From: Lentisphaerota bacterium
GTDB taxonomy: Bacteria > Verrucomicrobiota > Kiritimatiellia > RFP12 > JAAYLN01
Reading direction: 5' to 3'
Length of the DNA: 57,269 bases
Assembly (NCBI GenBank): GCA_012521875.1
Contig: JAAYLN010000204.1
Location: 1-57,269 of the forward strand
Positions 18,620 to 56,886 of the stretch are shown here, piece after piece. Numbering within the stretch: position 1 is the stretch's first letter; every line of letters begins with the position of its first letter. The notes beneath the pieces are model-generated. The model searched no databases, had not been told where the DNA came from, and saw only the letters and a program-made list of their open reading frames with translations. A program made the position numbers and the translations under genes.

Positions 18620-18648
18620 ATTATGTGTCACATCAATGCCGGCGTCAA
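18620..18648 (-). promoter_or_regulatory. Sigma-70-like promoter for the antitoxin-toxin pair; implies a leaderless or near-leaderless mRNA
   Basis: Minus strand reads TTGACG-17 nt-CATAAT-GTATACC-ATG(18612). Confidence 0.4.
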
Positions 18649-18833
18649 GCGCAGAGGGGGCGCAGAGGGGGGGGGCGGCTAGCGACAGGGGAGGGGATCA
18701 TACGGACCAAGTCGTATGATCGATGAGGATACAAGGGAAAGGGAGCGGAGGGTAAATGGAGTGTCCGCGTCCTCGTCCCCGGAAGAGATTGCACCGACAG
18801 GACGCCAAGGTCGCCAAGGGGAATCGCGCTGGT

Positions 18834-18978
18834 CTTAAGCCACCCGCCCCATCTTTCGCTTTCGACAAAGCGTAGGGACAAAGTGTGGAGACGAAGCGTA
18901 GCCGACAAAGCGTGGAGACAAGGTGCATGGACAAAGTGTGAGCGCGAAGCACCCACTTAAACCCTCTCTTAAACTCAC
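18834..18978 (-). repeat. TTAAG/CTTTGTC composite element, copy T4 (reverse, TTAAG module split and partly deleted)
   Basis: CTTAAGCCACCCGC fragment. GACAAAG/GACGAAG units at 18861-18938. GCGCGAAGCAC hairpin. CCACTTAAACCCTCTCTTAAACTCAC. Confidence 0.85.
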
Positions 18979-19033
18979 ATCATGCGGTTGGCGGCTCGCC
19001 GGTCACGCCGCGTAGCGGCATGACAGGGACGGC

Positions 19034-19244
19034 TCGCCCTACCCTTCGGTTTGCTGTACCGTGAGCTTGGCCTGGCGCGGCGACCGGGGGCTGACGGTAC
19101 GGATGGGGACTGGGCGAACGGAGAGGCCGGAACGCTGGAGCCCGCCGTCCCCGGCGGTACCGTTCGCTATTCATGCGCCGCATCAGTACACCGCGGAGAC
19201 CGCGGGCTCCATAGCGCATCTGAAGTGAACGGGATGCCGGAACG
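19034..19244 (+). repeat. Element B, short form
   Basis: Co-linear with 1293-1492 by eye, with the same hairpins. Confidence 0.8.
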
Positions 19245-19355
19245 CTGGAGAGAACGTTCCCCCATGCTTGACATCGTGCATCCGTCCGGGCAAACTGGGC
19301 ACATGGGCAATGTGTTCCATCACAAAGCCGGAACCAGTGCTATAGTGGGGTTTGC

Positions 19356-19703: not shown

Positions 19704-19817
19704 GAGCGGGTGACAGGTCGGGCTTTCAGCCCGCGTTTACCCAATTCGCCGGCAGTCCTAGGGCTGCGTCGCCCTTTCATGCGCTGATGCATGTGCTTTA
19801 GCAGGTGCCTCCTCTTG

Positions 19818-19950
19818 CGGACGAGCAGACGCTCGTCTCCCGTGGCTGCGGGCGTGGCGTTAATTGCGGTGCCCTGCGCGCGGCTAGCCGGGACGGCTTC
19901 GCCCCACCTGTGCTGGCGCGCTTCAGCAGGGGCTTTCCAGAAGCTCGACT
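19818..19950 (+). repeat. Element D copy
   Basis: CGGACGAGCAGACGCTCGTC hairpin, then GCGGTGCCCTGCGCGCGGCTAGCCGGGACGGC..., aligning with 4908-5035. Confidence 0.75.
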
Positions 19951-19974
19951 ACATTCGACGACAGCGGACTTGCC

Positions 19975-20046
19975 GAGGACGAGGACGAGGACGAGGACGA
20001 GCGGAGCACAACCAATCACAAATCACAAATCTAAAATCACAAATAC
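19975..20046. repeat. (GAGGAC)n hexamer array followed by an (AATCACA)n array
   Basis: GAGGACGAGGACGAGGACGAGGACGAGC. CACAACCAATCACAAATCACAAATCTAAAATCACAAATAC has an inverted copy at 39731-39768. CGTCCTCG runs also occur at 4765-4780 and 49835-49870. Confidence 0.8.
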
Positions 20047-20388
20047 CCCTTGGCGTTCGTGGCACCTTGCCTGCTTCCTCATCTGCGCGGGCCAGGTCCC
20101 GCGGTAGAAAGCGCGTCCGGGGCCGCGCACTCAAACCGCTTGCGCACGTAGTGCGCCGCGCGGGGTGATCGAATAAGCCGTATAGCTGAAATACCGGGCG
20201 TCTGGCTGATAGGGGGCCGCGTGCGGACGGAGCTCAAGCGAAAGCCGCAGGGTAGGGCTGCAAGCCCACAACTGCAAGGCTCCACACTCCATCACTGCGG
20301 CTACCCCTGCCATTTTCGCGTTAATTGGCGTCCATTCGCGGTTACATCTCTTGGCGTTCTTGGCGTCTTGGCGGTTCAAATCGCTGCG

Positions 20389-20437
20389 CTGTACCGTGAG
20401 CTTGTGCCGGGGCGGCGGGCGGGGTGGTTCGGTACAG
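20389..20437 (+). repeat. Isolated SL1 hairpin module of Element B
   Basis: CTGTACCG-33 nt-CGGTACAG. The same module is reversed at 37787-37845 and 39640-39689, and lies inside the long Element B copies. Confidence 0.75.
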
Positions 20438-20532
20438 GTGGGAGAAAACCGTTTGCGACACAACCCAGTTGTATCGCAGAAGAGGGTAAAAGAGCGTGGA
20501 AAGCCGCGCCTTCGCGTGAGCTAATCTGTTGC

Positions 20533-20651
20533 TTTCGACGAAGGCGACAAAGTTTCCGACAAAGCTCGCGACAAAGTGGGTTTTCGGCCCATTCCAACTG
20601 CCTACTGCAACTGCCTACTGCAACTGCCGCTGCCCCCGCAGGGGCAGCGGC
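20533..20651. repeat. Short-period GACAAAG array, then an (ACTGC[CA])n array ending in a perfect 11-bp hairpin
   Basis: TTTCGACGAAGGCGACAAAGTTTCCGACAAAGCTCGCGACAAAG. CCATTCCAACTGCCTACTGCAACTGCC.... GCCGCTGCCCC-cgca-GGGGCAGCGGC at 20626-20651. Confidence 0.85.
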
Positions 20652-20665
20652 GCGACTGAACCGGC

Positions 20666-20710
20666 ACAAAAAAGGCTGAAGGTCCAACCTGTTGGGAAGT
20701 GCCTTCAGCC
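20666..20710 (-). terminator. Rho-independent terminator downstream of pnp
   Basis: Minus strand reads GGCTGAAGG-loop-CCTTCAGCC followed by TTTTTTG, about 50 nt after the pnp stop. Confidence 0.7.
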
Positions 20711-20759
20711 TCTCTAGTGCCGTTCTGTGACGGGCGGCGCGGTTAAGCCGCCACAGGCA

Positions 20760-28459: not shown

Positions 28460-30676
28460 TTAGGGTAGCATAACCCCGGCGCATTGGCAAACATTAGACT
28501 TCCAGCGCAGCAACCGTACACTGCCCGCGGCCATGGGCGCGAGCGGTTCAACGCTCTCCCGTCCCGGCTCGGCGGCCGATTCCAGCGTGTAGCCCGGCAC
28601 CTCCAGCGTGAACGGTGCCACTTCATGGGTTGGATTCCAGATTGCCACGCCGAACCGGTCGCCGGCGGCAAACCCCTTGGCCACGAGATCCTTGCCGGCC
28701 AGGGTGAAGCCCTCGCTGTCCGTAAAACGGCCGTGCCAGAAAAACGCCGCGTTTGCACGCTGGAAGTCAATCGCCGCCTTCAGGTAGCGCGTGGCCTCGT
28801 CGGGCGGCGTGGACTGCATCATCACCACATCCGGCTTGCCGACCACATGCGTGTAGTCGTCCATTTCCGGCACGCGGCCGTGCAGCAGGTAGGCCACATC
28901 CGGCCCGTAGCGCGACTCGAGCTCGTAGCGCATCCCGTACACGCAGGTGTAGTTCACCATGTCGCGGTCCATCATCGGCGTCGGAATGCGTACCGTGCTT
29001 ATCACCTCCGGAAAGGTGGTGCGGAAGAGCTCGGGGAAGGTATCCGCCACCCGGTCGGCGCGCAGGCGCGCCAGCATTTCCGCTGCGCACACGTAGAAGG
29101 TGCCCACCGTGCAGCCATGGAACATCGCCACCGCATCCAGCGCACAGTCGTACAGCCCCTCGGTCATCACAATAAACTCGGGGTTGATGCGGCGCATGTG
29201 GTCGGCGATGCGCTTCAGGAAGACCGGACGCTCCACCTCATGCACCATGCAGGGCACCGGGTGGCCGTGGCCTGCGCCATGGCAGGCCATCGGCGGCATC
29301 ATCGCCAACTGGTCGTAGAGGATGCCGTCCGCCCCCAGCGCGCTGGCCTGTTCGGCCAGCGCCAGCATGCGGTCATACCAGGCCTGCGCATGGAGGCATC
29401 CCAGATCAAAGCGGTAAACCGGGATGTTGCCGTACTTGTGGTAGGTATGCTGGTAGGTGGTGCCGTCGCGCTGCGTGATGGCGATGTCCCTGCCTACCGT
29501 GCGCCAGAATTCGGTGGCCTCGCGCTCCTGAAGCTGGCCGTTGGCGTAGATGATCGTGCGCTTGCCCCGCCGCCGGGCCTCCTGCAAGCCCCTTTTCAGC
29601 GCCTCCGCGCCGCCCATCGCGGGACAGGGGTGATAGTCGGGATAGAGGTGATCATGACCGCCGTGCGCCCAGCCGAACAGCCCGATCATATCCAGCCCGC
29701 GGGCATCGGCCACGTCGCACAGCTTGTCCAGCGCGGTGTAGAGCCACATGATCTCGCCATTCTGCTGCTTCAGGATCGCGAGCAGCCAGCCCGATATCCC
29801 GCGCACCCACGCCGGCCCCTCGCGCAGCCTGCCTACCGTATTGAACCAGGCACGGTAGAGGCGCGCCGCCACATGCCTGGTGCCCGCATACGGCCGGAGC
29901 ACAACCGGCGCCAGTTCCACGCTTTCACCGCTGCGGCAGAAGAAGTCGTGGCGCACCGCCATGCCGAAGCGTTTCGTGGCGGGATCGTAGCGCAGACTCA
30001 GCCGCTTGGCGCGGTGCAGCGGGTCATGGCTGCCGACATAGAGGCCGCCCTTGCGGCCCGCGAGCGCGAACCACTGCATGGTGCCGTGTGCGCAGGGATA
30101 GGCCACCCCCGTTTCATAGCCGTCACCCAGCCGCTGCCAGCCCCCCTGCTCCTCGCCGGGCGCCGGGACGCGGTTGATGCGCTTGCCGAACCCCTCCGGC
30201 AGCAGTGCCGGGGAGTCGGCCAGATCCGCCCCGATCCCGTTCAGCACCGGCCCCGTGAAGCCGGTCAGCAGCCAGCCGCGCGCCTCATGCGTGACCGCCC
30301 CCGTCACCGTGAAGCCATCGCCCGAGGCATGGAACTCCAGCGTCAGCCCGATTCTGAAGACCCGTCCGCCGTCCGTCAGCCGCTCATAGACCAGCCGCGC
30401 GCCACCATCCGGCAGCGCCTCCCGCCGTGCCGCGTCCTGTCTGAGGCTGGTGATCACCACCGCCTCCCCCTGCGCCGCCGGCACTGTGTCCGGCTCCAGC
30501 GTCAGGCTCCAGAACGGCTCACCCGTCGCCCGGCTTGCCGGACACCCCGCCACCGACGGCGTCAGGCTGAGCCCCTTGGCACCCACCGACAACCTGCCCT
30601 TGCCCGCTGTGATGGTAACGTCGCCGGAGTCGTTCGAGGTGTTTCTATTAGAGGAGTTCATGTGTAAGTCAGTCAT
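28460..30676 (-). CDS. Hypothetical 738-aa protein, possibly carbohydrate-active, at the head of the glycogen gene block
   Basis: Long protein-like ORF. ATG at 30676 is preceded by AGAGG. Segments such as GLFGWAHGGHDHLYPDYHP and IIYANGQLQ resemble TIM-barrel glycosidase-like proteins. No family could be named by eye. Confidence 0.6.
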   Translation of the reverse strand: MTDLHMNSSNRNTSNDSGDVTITAGKGRLSVGAKGLSLTPSVAGCPASRATGEPFWSLTLEPDTVPAAQGEAVVITSLRQDAARREALPDGGARLVYERLTDGGRVFRIGLTLEFHASGDGFTVTGAVTHEARGWLLTGFTGPVLNGIGADLADSPALLPEGFGKRINRVPAPGEEQGGWQRLGDGYETGVAYPCAHGTMQWFALAGRKGGLYVGSHDPLHRAKRLSLRYDPATKRFGMAVRHDFFCRSGESVELAPVVLRPYAGTRHVAARLYRAWFNTVGRLREGPAWVRGISGWLLAILKQQNGEIMWLYTALDKLCDVADARGLDMIGLFGWAHGGHDHLYPDYHPCPAMGGAEALKRGLQEARRRGKRTIIYANGQLQEREATEFWRTVGRDIAITQRDGTTYQHTYHKYGNIPVYRFDLGCLHAQAWYDRMLALAEQASALGADGILYDQLAMMPPMACHGAGHGHPVPCMVHEVERPVFLKRIADHMRRINPEFIVMTEGLYDCALDAVAMFHGCTVGTFYVCAAEMLARLRADRVADTFPELFRTTFPEVISTVRIPTPMMDRDMVNYTCVYGMRYELESRYGPDVAYLLHGRVPEMDDYTHVVGKPDVVMMQSTPPDEATRYLKAAIDFQRANAAFFWHGRFTDSEGFTLAGKDLVAKGFAAGDRFGVAIWNPTHEVAPFTLEVPGYTLESAAEPGRESVEPLAPMAAGSVRLLRWKSNVCQCAGVMLP

Positions 30677-32159: not shown

Positions 32160-32163
32160 ATGC

Positions 32164-32184
32164 GTAACATAACAAAACTGTTAC
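32164..32184 (-). promoter_or_regulatory. Operator-like inverted repeat in the AT-rich stretch upstream of abiEi
   Basis: GTAACA-9 nt-TGTTAC, 5-25 nt upstream of the ATG at 32159. AbiEi proteins are known autorepressors that bind inverted repeats. Confidence 0.3.
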
Positions 32185-32361
32185 TTATTGTAAATAGATT
32201 GCAAAGCCTTGCAGTTGTGGGCTTGCAGTCTGGCCCAGCAGCTTTCTTTCCAGCCCCATCCGCACGCGGCGGGGACGCCGCGTCCGCGATACTTTGTCGA
32301 AAGCAACAGGGAAAACCCACGCGAAGGCACGAAGAATAGGAAACCGCGAATGCACGAAAGC

Positions 32362-32526
32362 GAAAGATTAAGCAGGTGGTTTAAGCGTGCCGATTAAGTG
32401 TTTAAGAGAGGGTTTAAGACCAGTGGGTGCTGCGCTCTAACACTTTGTCTCCGCTCTTTGTCTCCACGCTTTGTCGGGTACGCTTCGTCCCCTCACTTTG
32501 TTCCTACGCTTTGTCGAAAGCTAAGG
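32362..32526 (+). repeat. TTAAG/CTTTGTC composite element, copy T5
   Basis: GAAAGATTAAGCAGGTGGTTTAAGCGTGCCGATTAAGTGTTTAAGAGAGGGTTTAAG, then CTTTGTC units ending GCTTTGTCGAAAGC. Confidence 0.85.
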
Positions 32527-32546
32527 ATGGGGACAGCGTTTCCATC

Positions 32547-33206: not shown

Positions 33207-33331
33207 TTGTGCGGCTACCTTACGCTTTTCGTAATCTGATTGCAAGAATATCGTTTTGGCCTCGCATTCGGCTGGCCGCAGGGGGGGGAGCACGAAGCCT
33301 TGCAGTTGTGGGCTTGCAGTCTTCCGGCCAC

Positions 33332-33485
33332 CCGGTACTGCCGGTACTACCGGTACTACCGGGACTACCGGTACTGCCATGAGCCGCAGCCCCCAGCCCC
33401 CTTTCGCCCCCTTTGTGCACACGGCATGCCGTGCGCCTATTGAGCCCGCGTCCACTGCCACTGCCTACTGCCACTGCCTACTGCT
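33332..33485 (+). repeat. Composite (CCGGTACT[GA])n ... (ACTGCC)n, co-linear with 7646-7812
   Basis: 9-mers at 33332-33378. ACTGCC units at 33452-33485. Confidence 0.85.
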
Positions 33486-33493
33486 ACGTCCCC

Positions 33494-33521
33494 GCGCGCC
33501 GCCGCCCCGGCGGCGGCGCGC
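33494..33521. terminator. Perfect 13-bp GC palindrome (bidirectional terminator-like or insulator hairpin)
   Basis: GCGCGCCGCCGCC-cc-GGCGGCGGCGCGC, between the orphan abiEi-like gene and metH. No U-tract. Confidence 0.4.
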
Positions 33522-33583
33522 ACTTGCCCCCCACCCCCCGCTAAGTGTACACTGCGGGAGTAAGCACAGAGAAAAGCAACACC

Positions 33584-37084: not shown

Positions 37085-37139
37085 TGGTCGCCGGTCGCCA
37101 GTTGGAACAGGCCAGAGACGCCACTTTGTCCTCGCTGCA

Positions 37140-37275
37140 TTAATTTGACAGGATTTCCTGCTTCGCAGGCGCATATTAACATGATTAACATGATTTTCAG
37201 GATTTTTTTGGCCGCTACGCGGCAGGATTTAGCTACGGATTGCGCGGATTGGTGTAGGGTGTCTCAGACTAGTCG
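37140..37275. repeat. Element C, inverted copy of 6661-6812
   Basis: GACAGGATTTCCTG...ATTTTCAGGATTTTTTTGGCCGCTACGCGGCAGGATTTAGCTACGGATTGCGCGGATTGG is the reverse complement, with indels, of the copy near 6690-6775. Confidence 0.75.
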
Positions 37276-37286
37276 GGTCAGAGCCC

Positions 37287-37461
37287 CACTTTGTCGGTAA
37301 CTTTGTCGAAAGCAAAAGATGAAGCGGATGGATTAAGTGTGCCGATTAAGAACGAGCTTAAGTGAGGGGCTTAAGTATGTGCTTCGCACTTACACCTTGT
37401 CCCCGCACCTTGTCTCTTTACGCTTCGTCTCCGCACTTTGTCCCTACGCTTTGTCGAAAGC
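37287..37461 (+). repeat. TTAAG/CTTTGTC composite element, copy T6
   Basis: CACTTTGTCGGTAACTTTGTCGAAAGC. TTAAG module at 37313-37377. GTGCTTCGCAC hairpin. Array to GCTTTGTCGAAAGC. Confidence 0.85.
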
Positions 37462-37483
37462 GAAAGCGAAAGAGCAAGCGAAT

Positions 37484-37576
37484 GTTCCGGCCTCCCGTTC
37501 GCTTCGGATGCGCTTTGGAGCCCGCGGTCTCCGCGGTGTATTGATGCGGCGCATGATTGGCGAACGTTACCGCCGG
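37484..37576 (-). repeat. Element B, 3' half only (reverse)
   Basis: GTTCCGGCCTCCCGTTCGCTTCGGATGCGCTTTGGAGCCCGCGGTCTCCGCGGTGTATTGATGCGGCGCATGATTGGCGAACG. Confidence 0.75.
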
Positions 37577-38085
37577 AGATTCGCAAAGCAGGCACTTCAC
37601 CGCTAGAACGCCAAGAGCGCCAAGATAGGTAACCGCTAATGGACGAATCTACGCGAATCGCCCGGGCCTTTGCCATGGCACTGGATGGGAATATTGACTG
37701 CGCGCGGCTCCGCGCGCTTTCTTCTCGCCGCCTGCGGCAGGCAAAACCAGCGTCCTAATGAATGGCGGCCTATCCCGCCATTGCCACCCGTACCGAACCA
37801 CCCCGCCCGCTGTCCCAGCGCAAGCTCACGGTACAGCAACCGGAAGGTGCGGCAAGCGGGACGCTTGCCCCAGTGATGGAGCGTGGAGCCAAGCTTTTCG
37901 AAAGAATCGAAAGAGTCGATGGATTCGCGTGATTCGATTCGCTCGATTCTTTCGACTCTCTCGATTCCTTCGACCGCCCCCGCCTCGCCACACCGTCGGT
38001 GCTGTCGCTTGCAAGCCCCGATTGTCGTCGCCTGTCGTTGAGTTTTGGAGTAAGCGGGTGGAGTAAGACAAGCGTTCACGCACCC

Positions 38086-39222
38086 TTACACCCTCTTTCG
38101 AAGCCAAAGTCCGAAGAAGCGGTCGTAGACAAAATATTTTCCCGACTCGCCCTTCAAAACGAGCGCCTTGTTCTCAAGCGCTTTCAAGGCCTGTCGAACG
38201 CTGCTTGCAGCCCCCAGGCGATGTTTGGCGAGGAAAGAGCCTTTAAACGGTTCCGCGACCCCGCGTTCGACCGCCAGCGCTTTCAAAACGGCCAGTTGGC
38301 CGCGAGGCAGCATTTCGCAGAAGGCCTTGTAGGTTGCGTCTTCACATGCAATCGCCGCGTCTATGGCTTCCTGCGCGTCGCTGACCGCAGTGGTTTTCCG
38401 TCCCGAGGCAAAAATCCGGTTCAACGCCATTTGGACATACCACGTATGGCCGGAGAGTTCGTTGTAGATCCAGTCGAATGCCTCAGGCTCGAGAACCCGG
38501 TTTGCCTTGGCAAAGAGACCGGTGGCAAACGTTCGGTAGGGCTCAAGCTGGATTTCCCCGAGCGCGATTTTCTGGGTGCTCTGGTAAAACGGGCGTTTCG
38601 CAGACGAAAACATTTCCTCCATCAAATGCTTCTTGCTTCCTGAAAAGACAAGGCCGGCGTTTGGAAGGAACTGCGCGTGGGATCTCAGATCCGCTTCGAC
38701 CCCCTTGTCGGGATATTCCAGGATTTGCTGAAACTCGTCGATGGCGATGACACACCGCTTCCCCGATTCCCGGATGTAGTCAAAGACTTCGGAAAGGCTC
38801 CGCCTTGTCTCGGATGGCTTGATGTCAAACGAAAGCGTTGGCGCGCCGGTCTGGGAATCAAATGAGAACGTCGGGCGAAAGCTCTTGAAGAAAGAGCCGA
38901 TGCGACGGAGCGCGGCTTCGGAATGGTCGTCGAGCCGCCCGACAACCGCCCGCGCCAGCATGGTCGTGAAGTCGTGCAGGTTCTGGGTTGAGAAGATGTC
39001 GATGTAAAAGCGGCATCGCACCGAAGGGATCGTGGCGTCGAGGCGGTTGAAAAGATGGAGAATCAGTCCCGTCTTCCCCATGCGGCGCGGGCTGACGAGG
39101 CAGACGTTGCGCCCGTTGGCAAGAGCCGAAGCGAGTTCTTCCGTCTCCTTTTCACGATCGCAGAAATAATCGGGGCCTTGGTAGCCGGAAACGAGAAATG
39201 GATTGGCGGGTTTTGCTTTCAT
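38086..39222 (-). CDS. ATP-binding protein, Arch-ATPase/DUF234-like (AAA+ plus C-terminal wHTH-like region)
   Basis: ATG at 39222. FCDREKETEEL..VCLVSPRRMGKTGLI (Walker A). VIAIDEFQ (Walker B). Confidence 0.8.
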   Translation of the reverse strand: MKAKPANPFLVSGYQGPDYFCDREKETEELASALANGRNVCLVSPRRMGKTGLILHLFNRLDATIPSVRCRFYIDIFSTQNLHDFTTMLARAVVGRLDDHSEAALRRIGSFFKSFRPTFSFDSQTGAPTLSFDIKPSETRRSLSEVFDYIRESGKRCVIAIDEFQQILEYPDKGVEADLRSHAQFLPNAGLVFSGSKKHLMEEMFSSAKRPFYQSTQKIALGEIQLEPYRTFATGLFAKANRVLEPEAFDWIYNELSGHTWYVQMALNRIFASGRKTTAVSDAQEAIDAAIACEDATYKAFCEMLPRGQLAVLKALAVERGVAEPFKGSFLAKHRLGAASSVRQALKALENKALVLKGESGKYFVYDRFFGLWLRKRV

Positions 39223-39829
39223 GGAGACGAAGCCTACCAAATTACATAAAACATGTAACGCAAATTGTGTAATGAGAGCGTAATCGGTCAGTCGCCGGGG
39301 GCTAGTCGCTAGTGCCGAATCGGGCATGTTGATGCCGGGCGGATTGACCCCACCGCCACGATCTCGGCCAGCGGGAAGTCGGGGCCGTTAGCGTTATCGG
39401 CATAGGTTGTGTGATGGAATTCCATCGCCGTTCTACGTCTTCAGATCAGGGAAGAGGGACCTGGGTTATCTCAAAAGCGCATCCACTGGTCCCCTGTGTC
39501 ACGTCGCAAGCTGGCAGTCATTGTACTGTACAAATGCATGGCTTGCAATCACGTCTTCGGAACCCTTCATACCTGGAGACGCCCGTGGCGGGTGCTATGT
39601 TTGAGCACCTCGAAATTATTTGCCACAGTTTGGCCGGCGCCTGTACCGAACCACCCCGCCCGCCGCCCCGGCACAAGCTGACGGTACGGGCACTGATTTG
39701 AACCGCCAAGACGCCAAGAGCGCAAAGAAAATTTGTAATTTTCGATTTGTGATTTGTGATTGGTTGTGCTTCGCTCAAGACGCCTGGAGCGCAAAGCATA
39801 TAAGCCATATTATGACTAGCCGCCACGGC

Positions 39830-39987
39830 CGGAGTACCGCCTTCAGGCGGAAGTGGTTCAGGGGCTTCAGCCCCTGAACCATGACCCCTTTTTTTCAAGC
39901 AAAAAAGGGCTTCGCGGGCCTGAAGGCCCTTGTTGACTTCCGGCTGAAGCCGGTACTCCGACGCGACTGAGACCCCCACGCAGGGGG
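39830..39987. other. Cluster of six hairpins closed by a 10-bp long-range stem; contains opposing stem plus T-run terminator-like units
   Basis: CGGAGTACCG (39830-39839) pairs with CGGTACTCCG (39951-39960). Inner stems are GGTTCAGGGGC-ttca-GCCCCTGAACC, CCCTTTTTT-..-AAAAAAGGG, GGGCC-tgaa-GGCCC, CCGGC-tgaa-GCCGG and CCCCC-acgca-GGGGG. Confidence 0.6.
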
Positions 39988-40069
39988 CTGTACCGCGTGA
40001 TTTGCCAAGACCGTGCCGCAAATTACGTACCGTGCCATGTCATCGGAATGCAACGGCATTTCCCTGGCA

Positions 40070-40156
40070 CTATGTCCCGCCCCTTCAGGGCTAGTCGTTA
40101 TTTTGCCTATTCCCCAGGGCGTTGCCCTGGGCTGGCATATCGCGCCCTTTCAGGGC
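40070..40156 (+). repeat. Element E (CCCAGGGC-gtt-GCCCTGGG hairpin flanked by CTTCAGGGC motifs)
   Basis: Inverted copy at 50013-50100. An internally deleted copy lies at 51205-51226. Confidence 0.8.
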
Positions 40157-40246
40157 GCAGGGGCGTTTTTTTGGATGGACCATTATTGCGACCACTCAGT
40201 GGCTCGCAATTTAGAGGGTAAAAGCGCTGCGCTGCCCTTGCGCTGC

Positions 40247-40825
40247 GAAAGATTAAGCGGGTGAAGTAAGCGTGCCGATTAAGAGTGAGATTAAGAGTGG
40301 GTTTAAGTGGGTGCTTCGCACTTACACCTTGTCCCCGCACCTTGTCTCCACGCTTTGTCGGATACGCTTCGTCTCCACACTTCGTCCCCACGCCTTGTCG
40401 GATACGCTTCGTCTCCACACTTCGTCCCTACGCTTTGTCGAAAGCGGCGGGTGGGAGAAGACCGTTTGCGAAACAACCCAGTTGTATCGCAGAAGAGGGT
40501 AAAAGGGTGGGGAGCGCGCTTATCCCTGGTCTTGGCCTTCCGTTCACTTCGGATGCGCTTTGGAGCCCGCGGTCTCCGCGGTGTACTGGGGAGCGCATGG
40601 GGTGGCGAACGTTTCCGCCGAGGACGGCGGGCACCAGCGTTCCGGCCTTCCCCGTTCGCCCAGTCCTCGTCTGTACTGACAGCCTCCTGCACCGCACGCG
40701 TTCGCATAGTAGACGCGGCGTTCTGCGCGCAGGTCTCCCGTCCCCGTCCCTGTCCCCTGTCTCCTGTCCCCCGCCCGTACCGAACCACCCCGCCCGCCGT
40801 CCCGGCACAAGCTGACGGTACAGCG
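40247..40825 (+). repeat. About 580-bp composite X1: TTAAG/CTTTGTC copy T7 + GCGAAACAAC hairpin module + long Element B (reverse)
   Basis: Co-linear by eye with the reverse complement of 50423-51012. T7 carries an internal 40-bp tandem duplication (40353-40392 / 40393-40432). Confidence 0.85.
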
Positions 40826-40868
40826 AACCGGAGGGGTGACTGTGGCGGGGGTGGCTCAGACTAGGGAT

Positions 40869-46646: not shown

Positions 46647-47533
46647 CTACTTGGTTTCGGCCATTTCCTGCATGGTCTTGGCGGCGGCCTCTTCAGCCTC
46701 CCTGGCCTGGGCGGCCTTGCGGGCCTCCTCCTCAGCCTTGCGGGCGGCCTCTTCGGCCTTGCGGGCCTCGGCACGCTTCCTGGCGGCCTCGGCTTCGGCC
46801 AGCTTGTCCCAGATCTCGGTGGCCTTGGCAAGCTGCGCGTCGTCGAGTCCCATGGTGCGCAGCAGGCACGTGGCCATCATGCGGTTGCCCTGCTGGTTCA
46901 TGTGGACGCCGTCACCCGTGAGGGTGTTGCCCTTGGTGCCGGCCTCGCGGGCGGCCTTGACCCTGGCGATCATGTCCGCGCTGGTGTCGGCCACACGGCA
47001 CTTCTTTTCGGCTGCCAACTCGCGCAGGAAGTCGTTGTAGCCGGCCAGCTTGGCGTTGTTGGCATTGCCGGGATCCTCGCCGATCATTGTGGCGGTCATG
47101 ATGATGACCTCGATGCCGGCGGCCTGGGCCTGCTCGACGATGGCCGTGATGTTGGTGCGGTAGGCCGGGAGGGCACGCCGTTCTTGCCGTGCCAGACGTC
47201 GTTCACGCCGCAGCTCAGGGTCATTATGGTTGGCTTGTGGCGCAGCACATCGCGCTCCAGACGCGCCAGCATGTTGTTGGACTTGTGGCCGCTGATGCCG
47301 GCCTTGATGCCCTTCACCTGGATGCCGTTGGCCTCGAGCCCCTTGAGGACGAGCGTGACATAGCCGAGCGGACCGGCGCCCTGCTGCGTGATCGAGTCGC
47401 CCAGGAAGGCGATCGAGGCATCCGGCTTGGCCAGTGCCGGGATCGTCTCGCCCGCGGCCCGGCGCGGGGCAAGGCCGGTGGCCAGCAGGCCGGCAAGGGC
47501 GATGGCGGAGAGAAAACGCGTTTTACTTTTCAT
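46647..47533 (-). pseudogene. SGNH/GDSL hydrolase with signal peptide and Glu/Lys/Ala-rich C-terminal helix; split by a 1-nt frameshift
   Basis: Block I FLGDSIT, block II GISGHKS and block III SCGVNDVW are in one frame. PAYRTNITAIVEQAQAAGIEVIIMT...DGVHMN (block V) is in the next frame. The switch is at 47163-47176 (mRNA GTGCCCTCCCGGCC). Confidence 0.75.
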
Positions 47534-47673
47534 TATGAGGCTCCATTCTACTAAGCTATGGGGGTGTCCGGCCATGGGACAACCCGATGACCGGATACTC
47601 CGGGGCTAAAACAGAAATAGCCGAGGAGGCGCGGTATATCGCCTCTTCGGCTATCGACAGGACTTCGATGCGG

Positions 47674-48752: not shown

Positions 48753-49670
48753 CTATGCGTTGGCGAGCTCCGCCACGGTCTCAAGCGTGGCCGCATCCCG
48801 CACGTTGGCCACCTGGTTCTGACGGTCAATGCGCTTGATAAGTCCCGACAACACCTTGCCGGGGCCGAATTCGATAAAGGTCTGTGCCCCGGCCGCGCGC
48901 ACGCAGCTCATCCAGTGGACGGGCTCGGTGATCTGGCGCAGCATGGTCTCGCGGATCGTCGCGCCGTCCATCGCGTGGGGCGCACCCGTCACGTTGGAGA
49001 GCACGGGCAGCGAGGGGGTGGCAAACTCGATATCCTTGAGCATGGCCGCCAGCCGCTCGCGCGCCGAGGCCATCAGGGGCGAGTGGAAGGCACCCGCCAC
49101 GTTGAGCACGATGGCCTTGCCGCCGGCCTCGAGCGCCGCGCGCTCGGCCTCCGCAACGGCCTCCCTGGTGCCCGAGAGGACGATCTGCGACTCGGAGTTC
49201 AGGTTGGCCATGGTGGTTCCGGTGGCCGCGCAGATCTCCCGCACCTTCTCGAAGGGGAGGGTCATCACACTCACCATGCCGCCGGGCGTCTCGTTGCAGG
49301 TCTCCTGCATGAAGCGTCCGCGGGCCTCGAGAACGCGTACCGTCGTCTCGAAATCCAGCACACCGGCCACATGCAGGGCGGTCCATTCGCCCAGGCTGAG
49401 GCCGGCCGCCGCCGTGAAGGTGCAGTCCGGATAACGGTTGCGGAACGCCTGCCAGCAGGCCACGCTCACGACGAAGATGGCCGGCTGGCAATGGTTCGAC
49501 TGCGTCAGGCTCTCGGCCGGCCCCTCGAAACAGACCTCTTTAAGGTCGAAATCCAGCACCGCGTTGGCACGGTCGAACAGGCGGGCGATGTCGTTATCGA
49601 CCGCCAGATCCTTGCCCATGCCTACGTACTGGGCGCCTTGTCCGGCAAAAACTGCTACTTTTGGAATCAT
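48753..49670 (-). CDS. fabD: Malonyl-CoA:ACP transacylase
   Basis: FAGQGAQYVGMG. GLSLGEW (active-site Ser). AFHSPLM. ATG at 49670. Confidence 0.9.
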   Translation of the reverse strand: MIPKVAVFAGQGAQYVGMGKDLAVDNDIARLFDRANAVLDFDLKEVCFEGPAESLTQSNHCQPAIFVVSVACWQAFRNRYPDCTFTAAAGLSLGEWTALHVAGVLDFETTVRVLEARGRFMQETCNETPGGMVSVMTLPFEKVREICAATGTTMANLNSESQIVLSGTREAVAEAERAALEAGGKAIVLNVAGAFHSPLMASARERLAAMLKDIEFATPSLPVLSNVTGAPHAMDGATIRETMLRQITEPVHWMSCVRAAGAQTFIEFGPGKVLSGLIKRIDRQNQVANVRDAATLETVAELANA

Positions 49671-49867
49671 GGTACTCCCGTCGTCAAACGCCATCATCCG
49701 GCGGGATAAAATGGCGTCAACCGCGTCATCTTCACCGATTTGAGCCCCATCTGTCAATCAAAAGCGACAACATGCCCGTAATCGGCCAGCGACAGGGATG
49801 CGCATGAAGAGTTGATCGAATGCAGATGGATCGTCCTCGTCCTCGTTCTCGTTCTCGTTCTCGATTC

Positions 49868-50004
49868 AGCAGACAAGGTGTGGGGACGAGGTGCAAGCGC
49901 GAAGCGCACACTTAAACCCACACTTAATCCCACTCTTAATCGGCACACTCCACCCGCTTAATCTTTAGCTTTCGACAAAGTTGCCGACAAAGCTCGCGAC
50001 AAAG
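49868..50004 (-). repeat. TTAAG/CTTTGTC composite element, copy T8 (reverse; shortened array) plus a short-period GACAAAG array
   Basis: GACAAGGTGTGGGGACGAGG. GCGCGAAGCGCAC hairpin. CTTAAACCCACACTTAATCCCACTCTTAATCGGCACACTCCACCCGCTTAATC. TTTCGACAAAGTTGCCGACAAAGCTCGCGACAAAG. Confidence 0.85.
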
Positions 50005-50012
50005 TTGATGAA

Positions 50013-50100
50013 AGCCCTGAAAGGGCGTGATATACCAGCCCAGGGCAACGCCCTGGGGAACTGAGCCAAAAACTGGCTAGTCCTGAAGGGGCGGGACATA
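50013..50100 (-). repeat. Element E, inverted copy
   Basis: GCCCTGAAAGGGCGTGATATACCAGCCCAGGGCAACGCCCTGGGG...CCTGAAGGGGCGGGACATAG is the reverse complement of 40070-40156, with indels. Confidence 0.8.
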
Positions 50101-50422
50101 GTCATGGAAGGGGTGCCCATCCGCTACCTGAATCGGGCGGGCCTTCAGCCCTCTTTATCTTTTGCTATTGGTTTCCTAGGCTTCACCCTAGGCTGGGATG
50201 GGGCGCGCCGTTGGCACTTTTTCGCTCCATCGCTCCATCGCTGCGGCTAGCCGGGACGGCGTCGCCCCACCTGTGCTTGCGCGCTTGTGCGGTAGCTTCC
50301 CCGCCCAATGTGGCACGGACATTCCTGTCTGCGCGCGTCTTCGAGGGCAGACAGGAATGTCTGCCCCACCCTACCGCACTCCATCGCTGCGACAAGCGGG
50401 ACGCTTGCCCTACCTTCCAGAG

Positions 50423-51012
50423 GCTGTACCGTGAGCTTGTGCCGGGGCGGTGGGCGGGGTGGTTCGGTACAGGCGGGGAACAGGAGACAGGGGACAGGGG
50501 ACGGGAGACCTGCGCGCAGCGGAAACGCCGCGTCTACTACACGAACGCGTGCGATGCAGGAGGCTGTCGGTACAGACGAGGACTGGGCGAACGGAAAAGC
50601 CGGAACGCTGGAGCCCGCCGTCCCCGGCGGTAACGTTCGCCAATCATGCGCCGCATCAATACGCCGCGGAGATCGCGGGCTCCAAAGCGCATCTGAAGTG
50701 AACTGATGGCAAAGACCAGGGAAATGCGCACGCACCCCACCCTTTTACCCTCTTCTGCGATACAACTGAGTTGTTTCGCAAACGGTCTTCTCCCCCCCAC
50801 CGCTTTCGGCAAAGCTTAGGGACAAAGCGCAGGGACGAAGCGTAGCCGACAAAGTGTGGAGACAAGATGTGGGGGACCAGGTGTGGGTGACAAGGTGTAT
50901 CGCGACTAAGTGTGGAGACTAAGTGTGGGGACAAGGTGTAAGCGCGAAGCGCCACTTAAACCCTCTCTTAATCCCACTCTTAATCGGCACACTTAATCCA
51001 CCCGCTTACTCC
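50423..51012 (-). repeat. About 590-bp composite X2, inverted copy of X1 (long Element B + GCGAAACAAC hairpin module + TTAAG/CTTTGTC copy T9)
   Basis: Element B at 50423-50705. Hairpin module about 50735-50795. Array at 50803-50938, including GACTAAG variants at 50904-50923. Reverse TTAAG module at 50955-51012. Confidence 0.85.
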
Positions 51013-51322
51013 ATTTTCGCGTGCATACTCGCGCATTCGCGGCGCCCCTTTCGCGTTTTTCACGTTTTTCGCGGTTAAAAAAACACCATCTGTTCGCGTT
51101 CATACTCGTCCATTCGCGGTTCCGTTTCCCCGCGCCTCTGTGCCTCCGTGCCTCCGTGAGAGACCACCATCTGCGTTCGACAAAGGCGACAAAGGGTGAT
51201 GACAGCCCTGAAAGGGCGGGACATAGTGTCCGGCAAAAGGCGCGTAATGTCGGCGACGCTTTACATAAATGGCATCATAATGTAAAGTGGCACTTTACAC
51301 AAAGCGCGGAATATGGTTAATT

Positions 51323-52531
51323 ATGGGCATGGATACGGCTCCTATCATCGAAAGGGATCTTTGGCCTGTCTTGAAAAGGGAACTAGGCAGCAGGGAGATT
51401 CTCGTCATCACCGGCCCGCGCCAGGTGGGCAAGACCACCACCTTGAAATGGCTGATCGGGCAGGTGCCGGACAATGCGCTCTACCTTGATTTGACCCTTG
51501 TCAGTGCCCAGCGGCTCTTCGAGTCCGAGGACTTCGACGGCGTCGCGAACACCTTGCGCGGGTTCGGACTGGATCTTTCCCGCCGCGCCGTGGTTGCCAT
51601 TGACGAAATCCAGTACGTCAGGCAGAGCCCCCGCGTCATCAAATACCTGCATGACCACTACGGCATCAAGTTCATCCTTTCCGGCTCAAGCGCATTCTAC
51701 CTTAAAAACCATTTTGCGGAATCTCTGTCGGCGCGCAAGATAGTCTTCGATCTTCTGCCGCTTTCCTTCCGGGAGTTCCTCGCAATCAAGGGTGCCCGCT
51801 TCATCCCGCCGGCGGTGGACTTTGCCAGGCTTCCGGCAGCCAGGTTCGACACCTTTGCCTACGAGGCACTCACGGCACTCTACGAGGAGTACATCGCCTA
51901 CGGCGGGTTTCCCGCCGTGGCCTTGAGCGATACAGTCGAGCGCAAGCGTCGGATGCTTGATGTTATATACAGTTCCTACATCAATCTGGACGTCATGCAT
52001 CTCGCGGACTTCAAGTCCGTCGCCGATCTGAAGAAGCTTGTTGTCCTGCTTGCGGCGCGCGTCGGCTCGCGGCTGAACATTGATGAGCTGTCGAAAATCG
52101 TCGGCCTGTCGCGTCCGACGGTCATGAACCATATCGCATTTCTCGAGCAGACCTACCTGATCCGGCTTCTGCCGGCCTATTCGAAAAATCCGTCTGTCCG
52201 CCAACGCATCCCCAGAAAGGTGTATTTCGTCGACACCGGCATCGCCAACATCAACGCCGACTTGTCCGGCGGTGCCCAGTTCGAGAATGCACTCTGCCAC
52301 CAGCTCCGGCCCTACGGTGCCGTCGCCTTCTCCAGTGTGGGGGGCGAGATAGACTTTGTCCTCACCCGTGACGGACGCACCGTGGCGCTCGAGGCCAAGA
52401 TGACGCCTGTGGAGCGCAACCGCGCGGATCTTCAGAAACGCGCCGCGCAAATCGAGTCCGACGGCTTCGCCCTTGTGGGTCGCCATCCATCAGCGTCGTT
52501 TGACAACTGCCTGTGGGGCGGATGCCTCTAG
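51323..52531 (+). CDS. ATP-binding protein, AAA_14 + DUF4143-like
   Basis: MGMDTAPIIERDLWPVLKRELGSREILVITGPRQVGKTT (Walker A). VVAIDEIQ (Walker B). The C-terminal half is typical of DUF4143-type proteins (..KVYFVDTGIAN..GEIDFVL). Confidence 0.8.
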   Translation: MGMDTAPIIERDLWPVLKRELGSREILVITGPRQVGKTTTLKWLIGQVPDNALYLDLTLVSAQRLFESEDFDGVANTLRGFGLDLSRRAVVAIDEIQYVRQSPRVIKYLHDHYGIKFILSGSSAFYLKNHFAESLSARKIVFDLLPLSFREFLAIKGARFIPPAVDFARLPAARFDTFAYEALTALYEEYIAYGGFPAVALSDTVERKRRMLDVIYSSYINLDVMHLADFKSVADLKKLVVLLAARVGSRLNIDELSKIVGLSRPTVMNHIAFLEQTYLIRLLPAYSKNPSVRQRIPRKVYFVDTGIANINADLSGGAQFENALCHQLRPYGAVAFSSVGGEIDFVLTRDGRTVALEAKMTPVERNRADLQKRAAQIESDGFALVGRHPSASFDNCLWGGCL

Positions 52532-52602
52532 GCCATGATTTCGGCATGGAGTCCGGCAAGGCAAACTGATACGATGCCCATATTCTTTTGAACCTGATCA
52601 AG

Positions 52603-52696
52603 GCTCTTGCAAAACCCCTCGTGGCATGGGCGTCCCACCCATGCACACGGGCAGGATGCCCGTGCCACGTGTGCCTGCAAGGGGTTTTGCAAGGGC
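52603..52696. other. Long imperfect hairpin (about 19-bp outer stem plus about 12-bp inner stem)
   Basis: GCTCTTGCAAAACCCCTCG pairs with CAAGGGGTTTTGCAAGGGC (14 bp perfect at 52606-52619 / 52680-52693). Inner stem CGTGGCATGGGC...TGCCCGTGCCACG. Confidence 0.6.
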
Positions 52697-52778
52697 CTCC
52701 CTGATTTACATGGTGCGTTGCACGCGCCTCGGCCGGCGGAAAGGCCGGTCGCGGCCATCGGCCGCATGGAGAAGAGTC

Positions 52779-55250: not shown

Positions 55251-55397
55251 GGCGGTTGTGCGGCCGCCTTCGGGAGGCGGCCGGGGGTCAATAGGGTTCG
55301 GCCGGAATAGACGGTGCAATAGTGCGGGATAATGCCGCGAAAGTCAAACGCTAACGGTAACTAAATGTGATCGGCTAGTGACAGGGGGAGCAACAAT

Positions 55398-55543
55398 ACA
55401 CTTTGTCTCAACACTTTGTCTTCGCACTTTGTCCCTTTACGCTTCGTCCCCGCACTTTGGCTCCACGCTTTGTCGAAAATTTGGCGGCTGAAGTGATTCC
55501 GACAAAGCGTAGGGACAAAGTGTAGGGACAAAGTGATCGATCC
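55398..55543. repeat. CTTTGTC arrays as an inverted pair (copy T10, no TTAAG module)
   Basis: Forward units ACACTTTGTC... run to GCTTTGTCGAAAA (55398-55478). After a spacer, reverse units CGACAAAGCGTAGGGACAAAGTGTAGGGACAAAG occupy 55500-55543. Confidence 0.8.
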
Positions 55544-55595
55544 ATTCGGGAGCATCCCCTGTCACCAACCGATTACATGAAAAGCTGTAAAACAG

Positions 55596-55632: not shown

Positions 55633-56886
55633 GTGAACGCAAATTATACAGTTTCTCGATATTGCGAGACTCGCTTGCCGTCTCCGGATCAGAGGCGCAT
55701 CGTCATCCTCACCGGTGCCCGGCAGACCGGCAAGACGACGCTTCTGAAAAAGGTCTATCCGACCTTGAGGTATGTCAATCTCGACGTGCTGGAGAACCGG
55801 GAGTGGCTGCGCGGGCTCTCCGCCCTGAACTGGGCGGAGACGCTTGGCAAGGCTGTCATCGACGAGGCCCAGAAGGAACCCTCGGTCTTCGAGAAGGTCA
55901 AATACGCGTTCGATGAGCGAGCAGCCGATTTCACGGCGTTGTCGGGTTCGGCCCAGATTCTCCTGCTGTCGAAGGTCCGCGAGTCGCTGGCGGGACGGGC
56001 CTTCGTCTATGAGTTGTGGCCCCTGATGTTCAGCGAGGTGCTGGGCGGGTCGGAAGCCTTCCGGGAGCCGCTTTGTGCCCGGTTGGCCACCTGCGCCCGG
56101 GTGGGGGATGTGCTGGATGGCATTCCGCCGGAACTGCCGCCGGATGAGACCAACCGCAGGCGGCAGGTGATGAGACACCTTTTGAAGTGGGGCGGGATGC
56201 CGGAGCTGCTGGGGCTGAACGATGCGGACCGGCGTGACTGGCTGCGGTCGTATGAGGCAACGTATCTCGAGCGTGACCTCGGCGATCTGGCGCGGCTGTC
56301 CGATCTCGCGCCCTTCAGGAAACTCCAGCGCCTGACCGCCCTGCGCACGGCCTCGTTGCTCTCCTATTCGGAACTGGCCCGGGATGGTGGTTTCAGTGTG
56401 GACACGGCCCGGCGGTATCTGGAGTATCTGGGCTTGTCTTATCAGACATTTCTATTGCCGCCCTACCACGTAAACCTGACCAGCCAGGTGGTCAAGTCAC
56501 CCAAGGTGTTCTGGGCGGATGTCGGCCTTGCGCGGCAGGTAGGCGGCGTGGGCCGGGCCATGACAGGCGGGCTGTTCGAGACGTTCGTGGTCAGCGAACT
56601 TTACAAATGGGTTCGTTCCAGCGGGGCGGATATGCGCCTCTTCTACTACCGCACACGCTCGGGGCTTGAGGTTGACGTTATCATCGAGACGCCAAACGGG
56701 TTGATCGGGGTTGAAATCAAGATGCGCGAGAAGGCCGGGCATTCCGACGCCGCCGGTCTGCGGCGTGTGGCTGAGGGCGCGGGAAGCAGGTGGCTCGGAG
56801 GTCTCGTGGTTCATGGCGGCACGCGCCTTGAACCGCTTTGCGAGCCCGATATCTGGTCTGTCCCGGCCATTCGCCTGTTGGGATGA
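55633..56886 (+). CDS. ATP-binding protein, AAA_14 + DUF4143-like (second copy)
   Basis: RRIVILTGARQTGKTT (Walker A). AVIDEAQ (Walker B). C-terminal ..KVFWADVGLA..GLEVDVIIE... GTG start. Confidence 0.8.
   Translation: MNANYTVSRYCETRLPSPDQRRIVILTGARQTGKTTLLKKVYPTLRYVNLDVLENREWLRGLSALNWAETLGKAVIDEAQKEPSVFEKVKYAFDERAADFTALSGSAQILLLSKVRESLAGRAFVYELWPLMFSEVLGGSEAFREPLCARLATCARVGDVLDGIPPELPPDETNRRRQVMRHLLKWGGMPELLGLNDADRRDWLRSYEATYLERDLGDLARLSDLAPFRKLQRLTALRTASLLSYSELARDGGFSVDTARRYLEYLGLSYQTFLLPPYHVNLTSQVVKSPKVFWADVGLARQVGGVGRAMTGGLFETFVVSELYKWVRSSGADMRLFYYRTRSGLEVDVIIETPNGLIGVEIKMREKAGHSDAAGLRRVAEGAGSRWLGGLVVHGGTRLEPLCEPDIWSVPAIRLLG

Follow-up and report, generated by a model that had tools for sequence, protein, structure and literature searches.

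The DNA considered here (the window; 57,269 nucleotides, contig JAAYLN010000204.1 of the Lentisphaerota assembly GCA_012521875.1) is a bacterial chromosome segment of 65% GC that carries both housekeeping genes (rpsO-pnp, glgA/glgB, metH and fabD-fabG-acpP-fabF) and accessory genes (RHS, LRR, toxin-antitoxin pairs, PDDEXK_3 and three AAA-type ATPases). Between these genes lie unusually long gene-free stretches composed of short repeated modules, which we refer to as mosaics; the one at 49671–51322, our focal stretch, separates fabD from an AAA_14/DUF4143 ATPase gene. Identical PNPase and ATPase proteins are encoded on contigs of many wastewater and anaerobic-digester metagenomes, and the nearest named homologs belong to metagenome-assembled genomes (MAGs) of the Kiritimatiellae (PNPase 79%, FabD 69%). 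In one scan of the GTDB representative genomes, made with the pattern of a hairpin module called M1, the host species was not among the matches. No tRNA or tmRNA was found in the window.

A preliminary description of the window had listed twelve gene-free stretches adding up to about 10 kb. Their sum is 9,592 bp, or 16.7% of the window, and, in keeping with the statement that they hold no convincing open reading frames (ORFs), no ORF of at least 80 amino acids with a coding signature (GC content at third codon positions, GC3, above that at first positions, GC1) lies inside them. Several of the boundaries given for them reach into the ends of genes, by at most about 100 bp (as at 39223–39327 and 55251–55319). 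Likewise, the view that the focal stretch consists almost entirely of modules is correct from about 49771 to about 51200, whereas its outermost parts, roughly 100 bp next to fabD and 120 bp on the opposite side, are unique, promoter-proximal DNA: 49674–49770 had zero matches in 0.44 Mb of module-bearing loci, and 51229–51322 had none in other loci. These loci, about 0.44 Mb of metagenome sequence from the same or related organisms, form our comparison set and were fetched with one module, the query being a terminal 18-mer of the TTAAG/CTTGTC unit, which had matches in at least 115 stretches of metagenome sequence, mostly from bioreactors and many at contig ends.

The sharing of modules among the mosaics is far above chance. 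A distant second copy of the local 14-mer exists for 18.5% of gene-free positions and for 0.5% of positions elsewhere, and repeats found as dispersed blastn matches occupy 52% of the gene-free DNA (31–67% per stretch) against 0.3% outside it and not a single base in ten dinucleotide shuffles. Compared with the metagenome loci, cover rises to 77% of the gene-free DNA and 83% of the focal stretch, with 0.7% outside; the shared vocabulary and its unusual density, as first proposed, are thus borne out more strongly than had been claimed. Hairpin modules reach 15–76 copies each in the sampled DNA, and in the rest of the window, beyond the gene-free stretches, modules have almost no matches. The arrays previously noted (CCGGTACTG, ACTGCC, CTTGGCG, AATCACA, GAGGAC, TCGATTC and TTTTCGCG/ATTCGCGG) were recovered at their reported places by Tandem Repeats Finder (TRF), as were, by position, the four hairpins and GCCTTGCAGTTGTGGGCTTGCAG.

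Two trivial explanations can be weighed at this point. That the mosaics are assembly artefacts, that is, collapsed or chimeric metagenome repeats, is scarcely credible: repeats do break short-read assemblies, many contigs end in modules, and the focal spacer differs from other assemblies by 2.5–6 mismatches per kb where its flanking genes differ by 0–2, but the interval 49600–51400 was found in seven independent assemblies at 99.3–99.7% identity with a gap of at most one base, the length and order of the focal spacer are identical in these assemblies from different studies, and other spacers are confirmed by 6 + 1 + 1 contigs (L001–L006, L035 and L109). With at least seven independent assemblies in agreement, we reject this explanation. 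An origin of the stretches by decay of protein-coding genes, or as relics of prophages or plasmids, is very improbable too. The spacers are long for bacteria and adjoin accessory genes (toxin-antitoxin pairs, AAA_14/DUF4143 ATPases and PDDEXK_3), yet they lack a coding-type GC3 signature, their internal ORFs are without Pfam matches (including the four longest of 49671–51322), and 77–83% of them is short repeated modules. Furthermore, two copies of one composite, 51008–50423 and 40254–40824, are 84.7% identical over 594 bp and differ by indels of 1–15 nt that are not multiples of three. Degraded genes, which the preliminary description had itself named as the alternative, were on these grounds not found. 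There were no matches in 50,697 phage records, the sole match to a viral contig being a chance one inside a gene, and plasmids match only a short hairpin-module unit. An integron with attC sites was also rejected, judged from the gene map only, as there is no integrase and housekeeping genes are interspersed.

To describe how the modules are arranged, we mapped a library of 24 modules, built by hand, onto the window. In the window and loci taken together, the roughly 24 families follow a directional order: Acido-Lenti-1 hairpins, CGACAAAG units, a TTAAG array and a CTTGTC array, after which comes either (GAGGAC)n-(CCGGTACTG)n or a multi-hairpin unit. In terms of module codes, the main adjacency order is AL1 (Acido-Lenti-1), M13, optionally CGA or AAC, TTA and CTG, with three options after CTG, namely GAG, CCG and HGD; M1 and M4; or a short CTCAGACTAG end. 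Composites may instead have GCA followed by H2 on their left. The directional adjacencies are numerous (CTG-TTA 73, M13-TTA 30, GAG-CCG 24, CTG-GAG 23, M1-M4 18, GCA-H2 16 and AL1-M13 14), and inverted pairs are exceptional (AL1-/AL1+ 3, TGA-/TGA+ 7), so that the mosaics have order in common as well as vocabulary. Whole composites occur in either chromosomal orientation and in divergent, convergent and tandem spacers alike. The earlier statement that modules recur in different order and orientation was overstated in that a preferred relative order and orientation are kept. This directional grammar was missed in the preliminary description, as were terminal inverted repeats of about 20 bp, the identity of the Acido-Lenti-1 module and the near absence of the vocabulary from related species.

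The ends of the mosaics are marked by a motif, (G)TAATCGGYTAGYGACAGGG, which occurs four times in the window, where 0.02 matches are expected, and about 30 times in about 0.65 Mb. In about 25 loci it is the switch point from unique DNA to modules; in the focal stretch it lies about 9 bp inside the point where homology to a related species, represented by locus L033, stops. Placed in inverted orientation at both ends, the motif bounds four complete elements of 205–910 bp without ORFs. GACAGGG, the core of the motif, is similar to units of the internal arrays (GACAAAG and GACAAGG), and termini and arrays of this GACARRG-like kind look as multiple binding sites for one putative protein would. The element of about 250 bp in the related species (L033, 4677–5350 region) carries as cargo a CGTCGTAGCC... 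palindrome, also present in Lentisphaerales MAGs, and lies just upstream of an RNase P RNA-like sequence. In L045, the DNA between two terminal motifs was considered as a candidate autonomous element but proved to consist of the his operon, with a separate mosaic on either side.

It is informative to compare these stretches with the corresponding sites of related species. In L033, which is 84.5% identical at the nucleotide level across fabD, the spacer upstream of fabD is 143 bp long and aligns as far as 49770 before diverging. Three relatives with 85–90% PNPase identity have spacers of 75–115 bp after pnp, containing only two weak, short module matches, and one of them (L151) showed no dispersed repeats in 22 kb. 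The mosaics upstream of fabD and downstream of pnp are thus absent in related species, where the neighbouring genes differ as well. Between strains at 95–99.6% identity, the arrays differ by exact unit indels of 13, 14, 6 and 9 nt, the 6-nt units being those gained or lost in arrays of the (TCGTYC)n/GAGGAC type. Faster evolution of the mosaics within the population was considered and not upheld, since the comparison with gene divergence gave a mixed result (0 to 6 mismatches per kb).

The short spacers of the relatives, the stable length of the mosaics and the unit indels together point to a lineage-specific bloom followed by drift of the kind seen in variable-number tandem repeats (VNTRs). 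We consider it probable that the gene-free stretches represent such a bloom of non-autonomous composite repeats, similar to miniature inverted-repeat transposable elements (MITEs), in an uncultured, Kiritimatiellota-like member of the Planctomycetes-Verrucomicrobia-Chlamydiae (PVC) group living in digesters and wastewater. The basic unit is a composite of 0.2–1 kb, bounded in its complete form by terminal inverted repeats of about 20–45 bp that start with (G)TAATCGGYTAGYGACAGGG; its interior is a preferred series of GC-rich hairpins, Acido-Lenti-1 among them, that resemble repetitive extragenic palindromes (REPs), and of tandem arrays of 6–14-bp units, many carrying the core GACARRG/CYYTGTC in common with the termini. 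A putative transposase acting in trans on the termini and on GACARRG-type sub-repeats would copy units to new inter-operon sites, presumably with neutral effect, and the copies would then change where they are, gaining and losing units by strand slippage, suffering internal deletions and recombining with one another. The outcome would be mosaics alike in vocabulary and order and different in the modules present, and successive neighbouring insertions could build spacers of 1–1.7 kb such as 49771–51200. Through hairpin terminators and outward promoter-like sites, the insertions may possibly affect neighbouring genes, an effect predicted from sequence.

Several observations weigh against this interpretation. 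The flanks of the four complete elements contain no direct repeat, beyond bases that may belong to the inverted repeat, that would indicate a target-site duplication; no transposase with matching ends was present in about 0.7 Mb of sampled DNA; and the multi-copy ORFs tried as transposase candidates were only ABC ATPases and spurious ORFs across arrays. The terminal motif occurs in only about one third of the window mosaics, and at one end only of the focal mosaic. Mosaic length is constant across 7–13 near-clonal assemblies, among which no movement was seen, and in the one strain pair (98% identity) whose module content differs, the contigs are possibly chimeric at repeats. Finally, that the grammar is fixed and that some hairpins are conserved in different phyla could be signs of function and not of selfish spread. 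A crude screen for an HUH-like motif was negative in 237 neighbour proteins, and in a Pfam scan of the same proteins (about 0.7 Mb sampled) no Y1_Tnp or other transposase was among the top 25 families listed for each batch.

A functional alternative, which we regard as unlikely, holds that the arrays are functional DNA: GACARRG and TTAAG units, together with the hairpins, would be landing pads for a putative nucleoid-associated or regulatory protein, selected between operons for roles such as domain boundaries, control of supercoiling or insulation of promoters, with their origin left aside. The preferred order and orientation of the modules would fit this, as would the 3–10-fold repetition of 12–13-bp units, the core common to three array types and the termini, the occupation of nearly all inter-operon spacers in the window, and the precedent of E. 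coli bacterial interspersed mosaic elements (BIMEs), which bind integration host factor, gyrase and DNA polymerase I (PMC2817692, PMC3333891). Moreover, where a called gene is nearby, 12 of 16 terminal motifs lie 20–200 bp upstream of its start, although this bias is not significant (p ~0.08). Against functional DNA, related species with the same housekeeping genes lack the modules, unit numbers and module content drift among strains, composites are found in either orientation relative to the genes beside them, and a period of 12–13 bp does not match the helical repeat.

The focal stretch illustrates the arrangement. It consists of two minus-strand composites, and from 51228 downward the order is a partial AL0 hairpin, CGACAAAG units, CGCGAAA-type units, a TTAAG array, the GCGCGAAGCGC centre, a CTTGTC array, hairpin M3, multi-hairpin M1, M4, the long inverted repeat, GCT, AL0, Acido-Lenti-1, CGACAAAG units, a TTAAG/CTTGTC unit (one of about ten in the window) and, ending at 49831, a (GAGRAC)n array. 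Module M13 stands between Acido-Lenti-1 and the TTAAG array (14 and 30 adjacencies, respectively, in window and loci). The best-preserved composite of the window, at 39600–40868, ends with CTCAGACTAG beside a stop codon, and the independent contig L109 agrees with it at 99.97%. The positions of these and other features are collected in Table 1.

Table 1. Modules and boundaries of the focal stretch, other mosaics of the window, and complete elements (coordinates refer to the window unless a metagenome locus is named)
Feature	Position	Strand	Remarks
Native fabD upstream region	49674–49770	-	Unique, outside the mosaic; aligns with L033 (84.5% nt) to 49770
Terminal inverted-repeat motif TAATCGGCCAGCGACAGGGA	49779–49798	+	Outer mosaic end on the fabD side, pointing inward
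(TCGTYC)n hexamer array, GAGGAC family	49831–49863		TRF, 5.5 copies; module map
TTAAG/CTTGTC unit, short copy	49871–49966	-	CTTGTC-type 13-mers, GCGCGAAGCGC centre at 49897–49907, then TTAAG-type 12-mers
(CGACAAAGNNNN)3 array, module M13	49973–50006	-	TRF; module map
Acido-Lenti-1 two-hairpin module (RF01687)	50013–50057	-	42.1 bits against a gathering score of 37
Companion hairpin AL0, CTAGTCCTGAAGGGGCGGGACATAGTC	50075–50102		Further copies at 40069–40098 and 51198–51228
Module GCT, GCGGCTAGCCGGGACGGC..CCACCTGTGCT	50243–50286	+	95% identical to 19880–19923; 38 copies in window and loci
Long inverted repeat IRG, GACATTCCTGTCTGC ... GCAGACAGGAATGTC	50310–50369		53 copies in window and loci
Hairpin CAAGCG-gga-CGCTTG	50393–50409		Twin at 37851–37869
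Module M4, CTGTACCG...CGGTACAG GC-rich inverted repeat, then (GGGGACA)n	50423–50502	+	Five copies in window; TRF 50476–50502
Multi-hairpin module M1	50562–50703	+	GGCGAACG..CCGCCG-tccc-CGGCGG..CGTTCGCC, then CCGCGG-aga-CCGCGGGCTCCA; five window copies
Hairpin module M3	50738–50794	-	GCGAAACAAC-yca-GTTGTATCGC plus AGAAGAGGGTAAAAG
TTAAG/CTTGTC unit, long copy	50800–51012	-	TRF; starts the composite of ~590 bp at 51008–50423
TTTTCGCG / ATTCGCGG units and (CCGTGCCT)n array	51015–51158		Present again in 4–6 loci
Short CGACAAAG array and partial AL0 hairpin	51176–51228	-	Module map
Own upstream region of the AAA_14/DUF4143 ATPase gene	51229–51322	+	Palindrome TGTAAAGTggcACTTTACA hairpin; promoter-like site; unique, outside the mosaic
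Best-preserved window composite	39600–40868	+	M4-, CTTGGCG and AATCACA arrays, TGAA hairpins, AL0, AL1, H2, TTAAG, CTTGTC, M3, M1, M4-
Nine other mosaics within 1101–38085, same vocabulary	1101–1612, 4465–5234, 6306–6841, 7274–7812, 18622–19355, 19704–20759, 32160–32546, 33207–33583, 37085–38085		Module map, repeat cover
Complete element of ~205 bp	55368–55575		Ends TGATCGGCTAGTGACAGGGG ... CCCCTGTCACCAACCGATTA; opposed CTTTGTC/GACAAAG arrays
Homologous copy of the ~205-bp element	L072 4342–4551		Unrelated flanks; third copy in L062
Complete element of 910 bp	L038 11495–12405		Extended inverted repeat of ~45 bp, full module set
Complete element in a different species	L033 4677–4923		Same inverted ends, different cargo

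One module of the series belongs to a known family. Acido-Lenti-1 (RF01687) was described by Weinberg et al. 2010 as only a probable RNA, from Acidobacteria and Lentisphaerae (PMC2864571). In addition to the focal copy, a second copy in the window, at 40113–40157(+), exceeds the 37-bit gathering score (37.4 bits), and 20 related loci gave 18 hits of 37.1–46.8 bits. The family is defined by two hairpins with a conserved linker; here, however, the copies form a module at a fixed place in a repeated composite and not a stand-alone small RNA (sRNA) gene. Apart from this family, an E-value scan of the window with Rfam returned only chance microRNA-like matches to palindromic arrays.

It is also worth considering how far single modules extend beyond this lineage. 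The unit formed by AL1 and AL0 is 82% identical to inverted doublets on the plasmid pTs485 of Ca. Thiodictyon syntrophicum, which means that a gammaproteobacterium has this module too. On this plasmid the Acido-Lenti-1 and companion-hairpin unit is found at seven places, one of them (L164 4001–4190) being an inverted doublet of about 190 bp between anti-phage DUF1156 and DUF3780 genes. The M1 sub-hairpins CCCGCGG-aga-CCGCGGG-CTCCA and CCGCCG-tccc-CGGCGG are found in Lentisphaerales and related MAGs, often in tandem and directly after stop codons. In one metagenome locus (L044, ~800–2900, minus strand), a group II intron (RF00029, 55 bits) with a reverse transcriptase ORF containing YADD is inserted in an M1 module, 6–7 nt 3′ of the CCCGCGGAGACCGCGGG hairpin. 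Class C group II introns target sites after stem-loops, and the intron of this locus resembles them. Acido-Lenti-1 has been reported near group II introns, and insertion beside an M1 hairpin may explain this proximity.

The presence of an Rfam family invites the question of whether the mosaics act as RNA, that is, as untranslated regions (UTRs) or sRNAs with hairpins that would end transcription, stop 3′ exonucleases or serve as protein-binding sites, with Acido-Lenti-1 a genuine multicopy sRNA gene. The hits above the gathering score (two in the window and 18 in the 20 loci) and the rating of the motif as a probable RNA (PMC2864571) would suit this idea, and REPs are known as 3′-UTR elements (PMC3733652; 10.64898/2026.03.23.713779). 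Likewise, the sister modules M3 and H2 have an identical tail and different inner stems, both of which pair. The TTAAG/CTTGTC units fold modestly better than shuffles and with a slight strand bias (mean z = -1.6 and -1.2 for the two strands, p = 0.009), the long focal copy having modest hairpin potential (z = -2.2 and -2.7); a long RNA hairpin formed by this unit was rejected because the excess stability is merely modest. Other signals speak against RNA. Composites point either way with respect to flanking genes and occupy every spacer type, about half of the module families are unstructured simple tandem arrays, and terminator-like sites in the focal spacer are not enriched (2, with 2.4 in shuffles). 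The attempt to read a transcribed strand from G:T versus A:C mismatches in stems yielded no consistent strand, the apparent excess in the counts (A:C 129, G:T 18) being due mainly to two inherited variants and to modules whose orientation is uncertain. Hairpin density in the gene-free stretches is only 2.3 times that of genes. On balance, we judge an RNA function of the mosaics to be improbable.

Promoter-like sites, in contrast to terminator-like ones, are enriched in the focal spacer (4, with 0.6 in shuffles). One, ATGACA-17-CATAGT, lies on the plus strand of 51176–51228, within the AL0 module, and points toward the ATPase gene; another promoter-like site, TTGACG-16-GATGAT, is found at 49720–49693 in the native region upstream of fabD.

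How do the mosaics compare with known bacterial repeats? The preliminary description had offered E. coli BIMEs as the nearest analogy, which is apt for mosaics of short intergenic repeats and fails with respect to the tag, the alternation and the dominance of palindromes, and possibly the REP-associated tyrosine transposase (RAYT). REPs are defined by an unpaired GTAG or CGTC at one end of the palindrome and favour the 3′ ends of genes (PMC3733652), and in BIMEs regularly spaced REPs alternate in orientation (PMC2817692). In common with the REP and BIME systems of enterobacteria and pseudomonads, with their RAYTs and REP doublets (REPINs), the mosaics contain high-copy extragenic GC-rich hairpins, including palindromes of 20–40 bp, combined with other motifs, and they have species-specific vocabularies and break assemblies. 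In contrast, no tag is common to the flanks of 22 hairpins, gene-free DNA shows no enrichment of GTAG or CGTC, and within a composite the relative orientation of the modules stays the same. Tandem arrays, not palindromes, account for most modules, the mosaics reach 1–1.7 kb and are found in divergent promoter regions as well, and no RAYT turned up in the sample described above.

The mosaics also resemble MITEs, such as the Correia/NEMIS elements of Neisseria and those of cyanobacteria (PMC3184786): both are non-coding units below 1 kb with terminal inverted repeats and internal secondary structure, present in many copies at unrelated intergenic sites and apparently absent from the orthologous sites of relatives. 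The mosaics differ in that no target-site duplication was detected and no parent insertion sequence (IS) was found in the sample, in that many lack recognisable ends, and in that, instead of one conserved core, the interior has many sub-modules and VNTR-like arrays in a long series of variable make-up.

Other systems are alike in design. The BOX elements of Streptococcus pneumoniae are modular (boxA-boxBn-boxC), with a fixed order and variable tandem internal modules, non-coding and about 100–300 bp long. They share with the mosaics the fixed order, the variable internal copy number and the lack of coding capacity; they have three modules in place of about 24, show no sequence relation and belong to a different phylum. 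In heterocystous cyanobacteria, short tandemly repeated repetitive (STRR) sequences and small dispersed repeats form multicopy intergenic tandem arrays on a 7-nt scale, nested with other small repeats. Their units are unrelated to those described here, where arrays are tied to hairpin modules and inverted-repeat ends in a directional grammar. Unlike CRISPR loci, which have repeats of 25–40 bp separated by unique spacers, the arrays consist of head-to-tail units of 6–14 bp without spacers. The mosaics are therefore an unusually rich case of an already known type of bacterial intergenic repeat. One can also imagine that the composites are modular elements or chromosomal devices of a class not yet described in Kiritimatiellota-like bacteria, in which a putative dedicated DNA-binding protein or transposase would read the GACARRG arrays, Acido-Lenti-1 and CCGCGG hairpins (the latter also targets of group II introns) would have been recruited as parts, and the grammar would be a working architecture for inter-operon insulation or an RNA/DNA scaffold; we find this doubtful.

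The genes around the mosaics also merit description. Across the sampled loci, those beside mosaics are ordinary, diverse housekeeping genes, chromosome-wide. In the window, the three AAA-type ATPase genes (38086–39327, 51323–52531 and 55633–56886; one ATPase_2/AAA_16 and two AAA_14/DUF4143) are each flanked by mosaics, and small ORFs of no known family and toxin-antitoxin genes are likewise embedded between them, so that accessory genes and mosaics appear to occupy the same inter-operon islands. Between the ATPase gene downstream of the focal stretch and a DUF5698 gene lies a palindromic repeat of about 95 bp, CTTGCAAAACCCCT...AGGGGTTTTGCAAG, with inner hairpins (52599–52700), which is present in 11 loci and had previously been overlooked. 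The PDDEXK_3 (PF13366) gene at 14253–14678(-) is located between inverted repeats of about 23 bp, TTAATCAGGAACTCAAGAACTCA and TGAGTTCATGAGTTCCTGATTAA (14232–14693), and both of its flanks are found again in 7–8 metagenome loci; it looks like a small repeated cassette. A 2,130-amino-acid ORF at 7813–14205(-), with 72% GC, has a clear coding signature and zero Pfam matches. Within the DUF6259 gene, 374 bp (29010–29383) are missing in L003 and L006, strains otherwise 99.8–99.9% identical. A GDSL lipase at 46647–47575(-) is represented by two ORFs, one matching the N-terminal and the other the C-terminal half of one Pfam family, possibly a frameshift or a pseudogene.

These observations describe a region of a bacterial chromosome in which about 17% of the DNA is made up of non-coding repeats, a content that draws on some two dozen modules ordered by a grammar, arose in one lineage and goes far beyond what is seen in the BIMEs of E. 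coli. The repeat mosaics explain the fragmentation of the MAGs of this group, and the recasting of the Acido-Lenti-1 ‘sRNA’ as a module of a repeat element advises caution against annotating every copy as an sRNA gene. The system is a natural setting for the birth, combination and expansion of small repeats and, if it is true that the arrays are protein-binding sites, it would represent a novel form of chromosome organisation in the PVC group.

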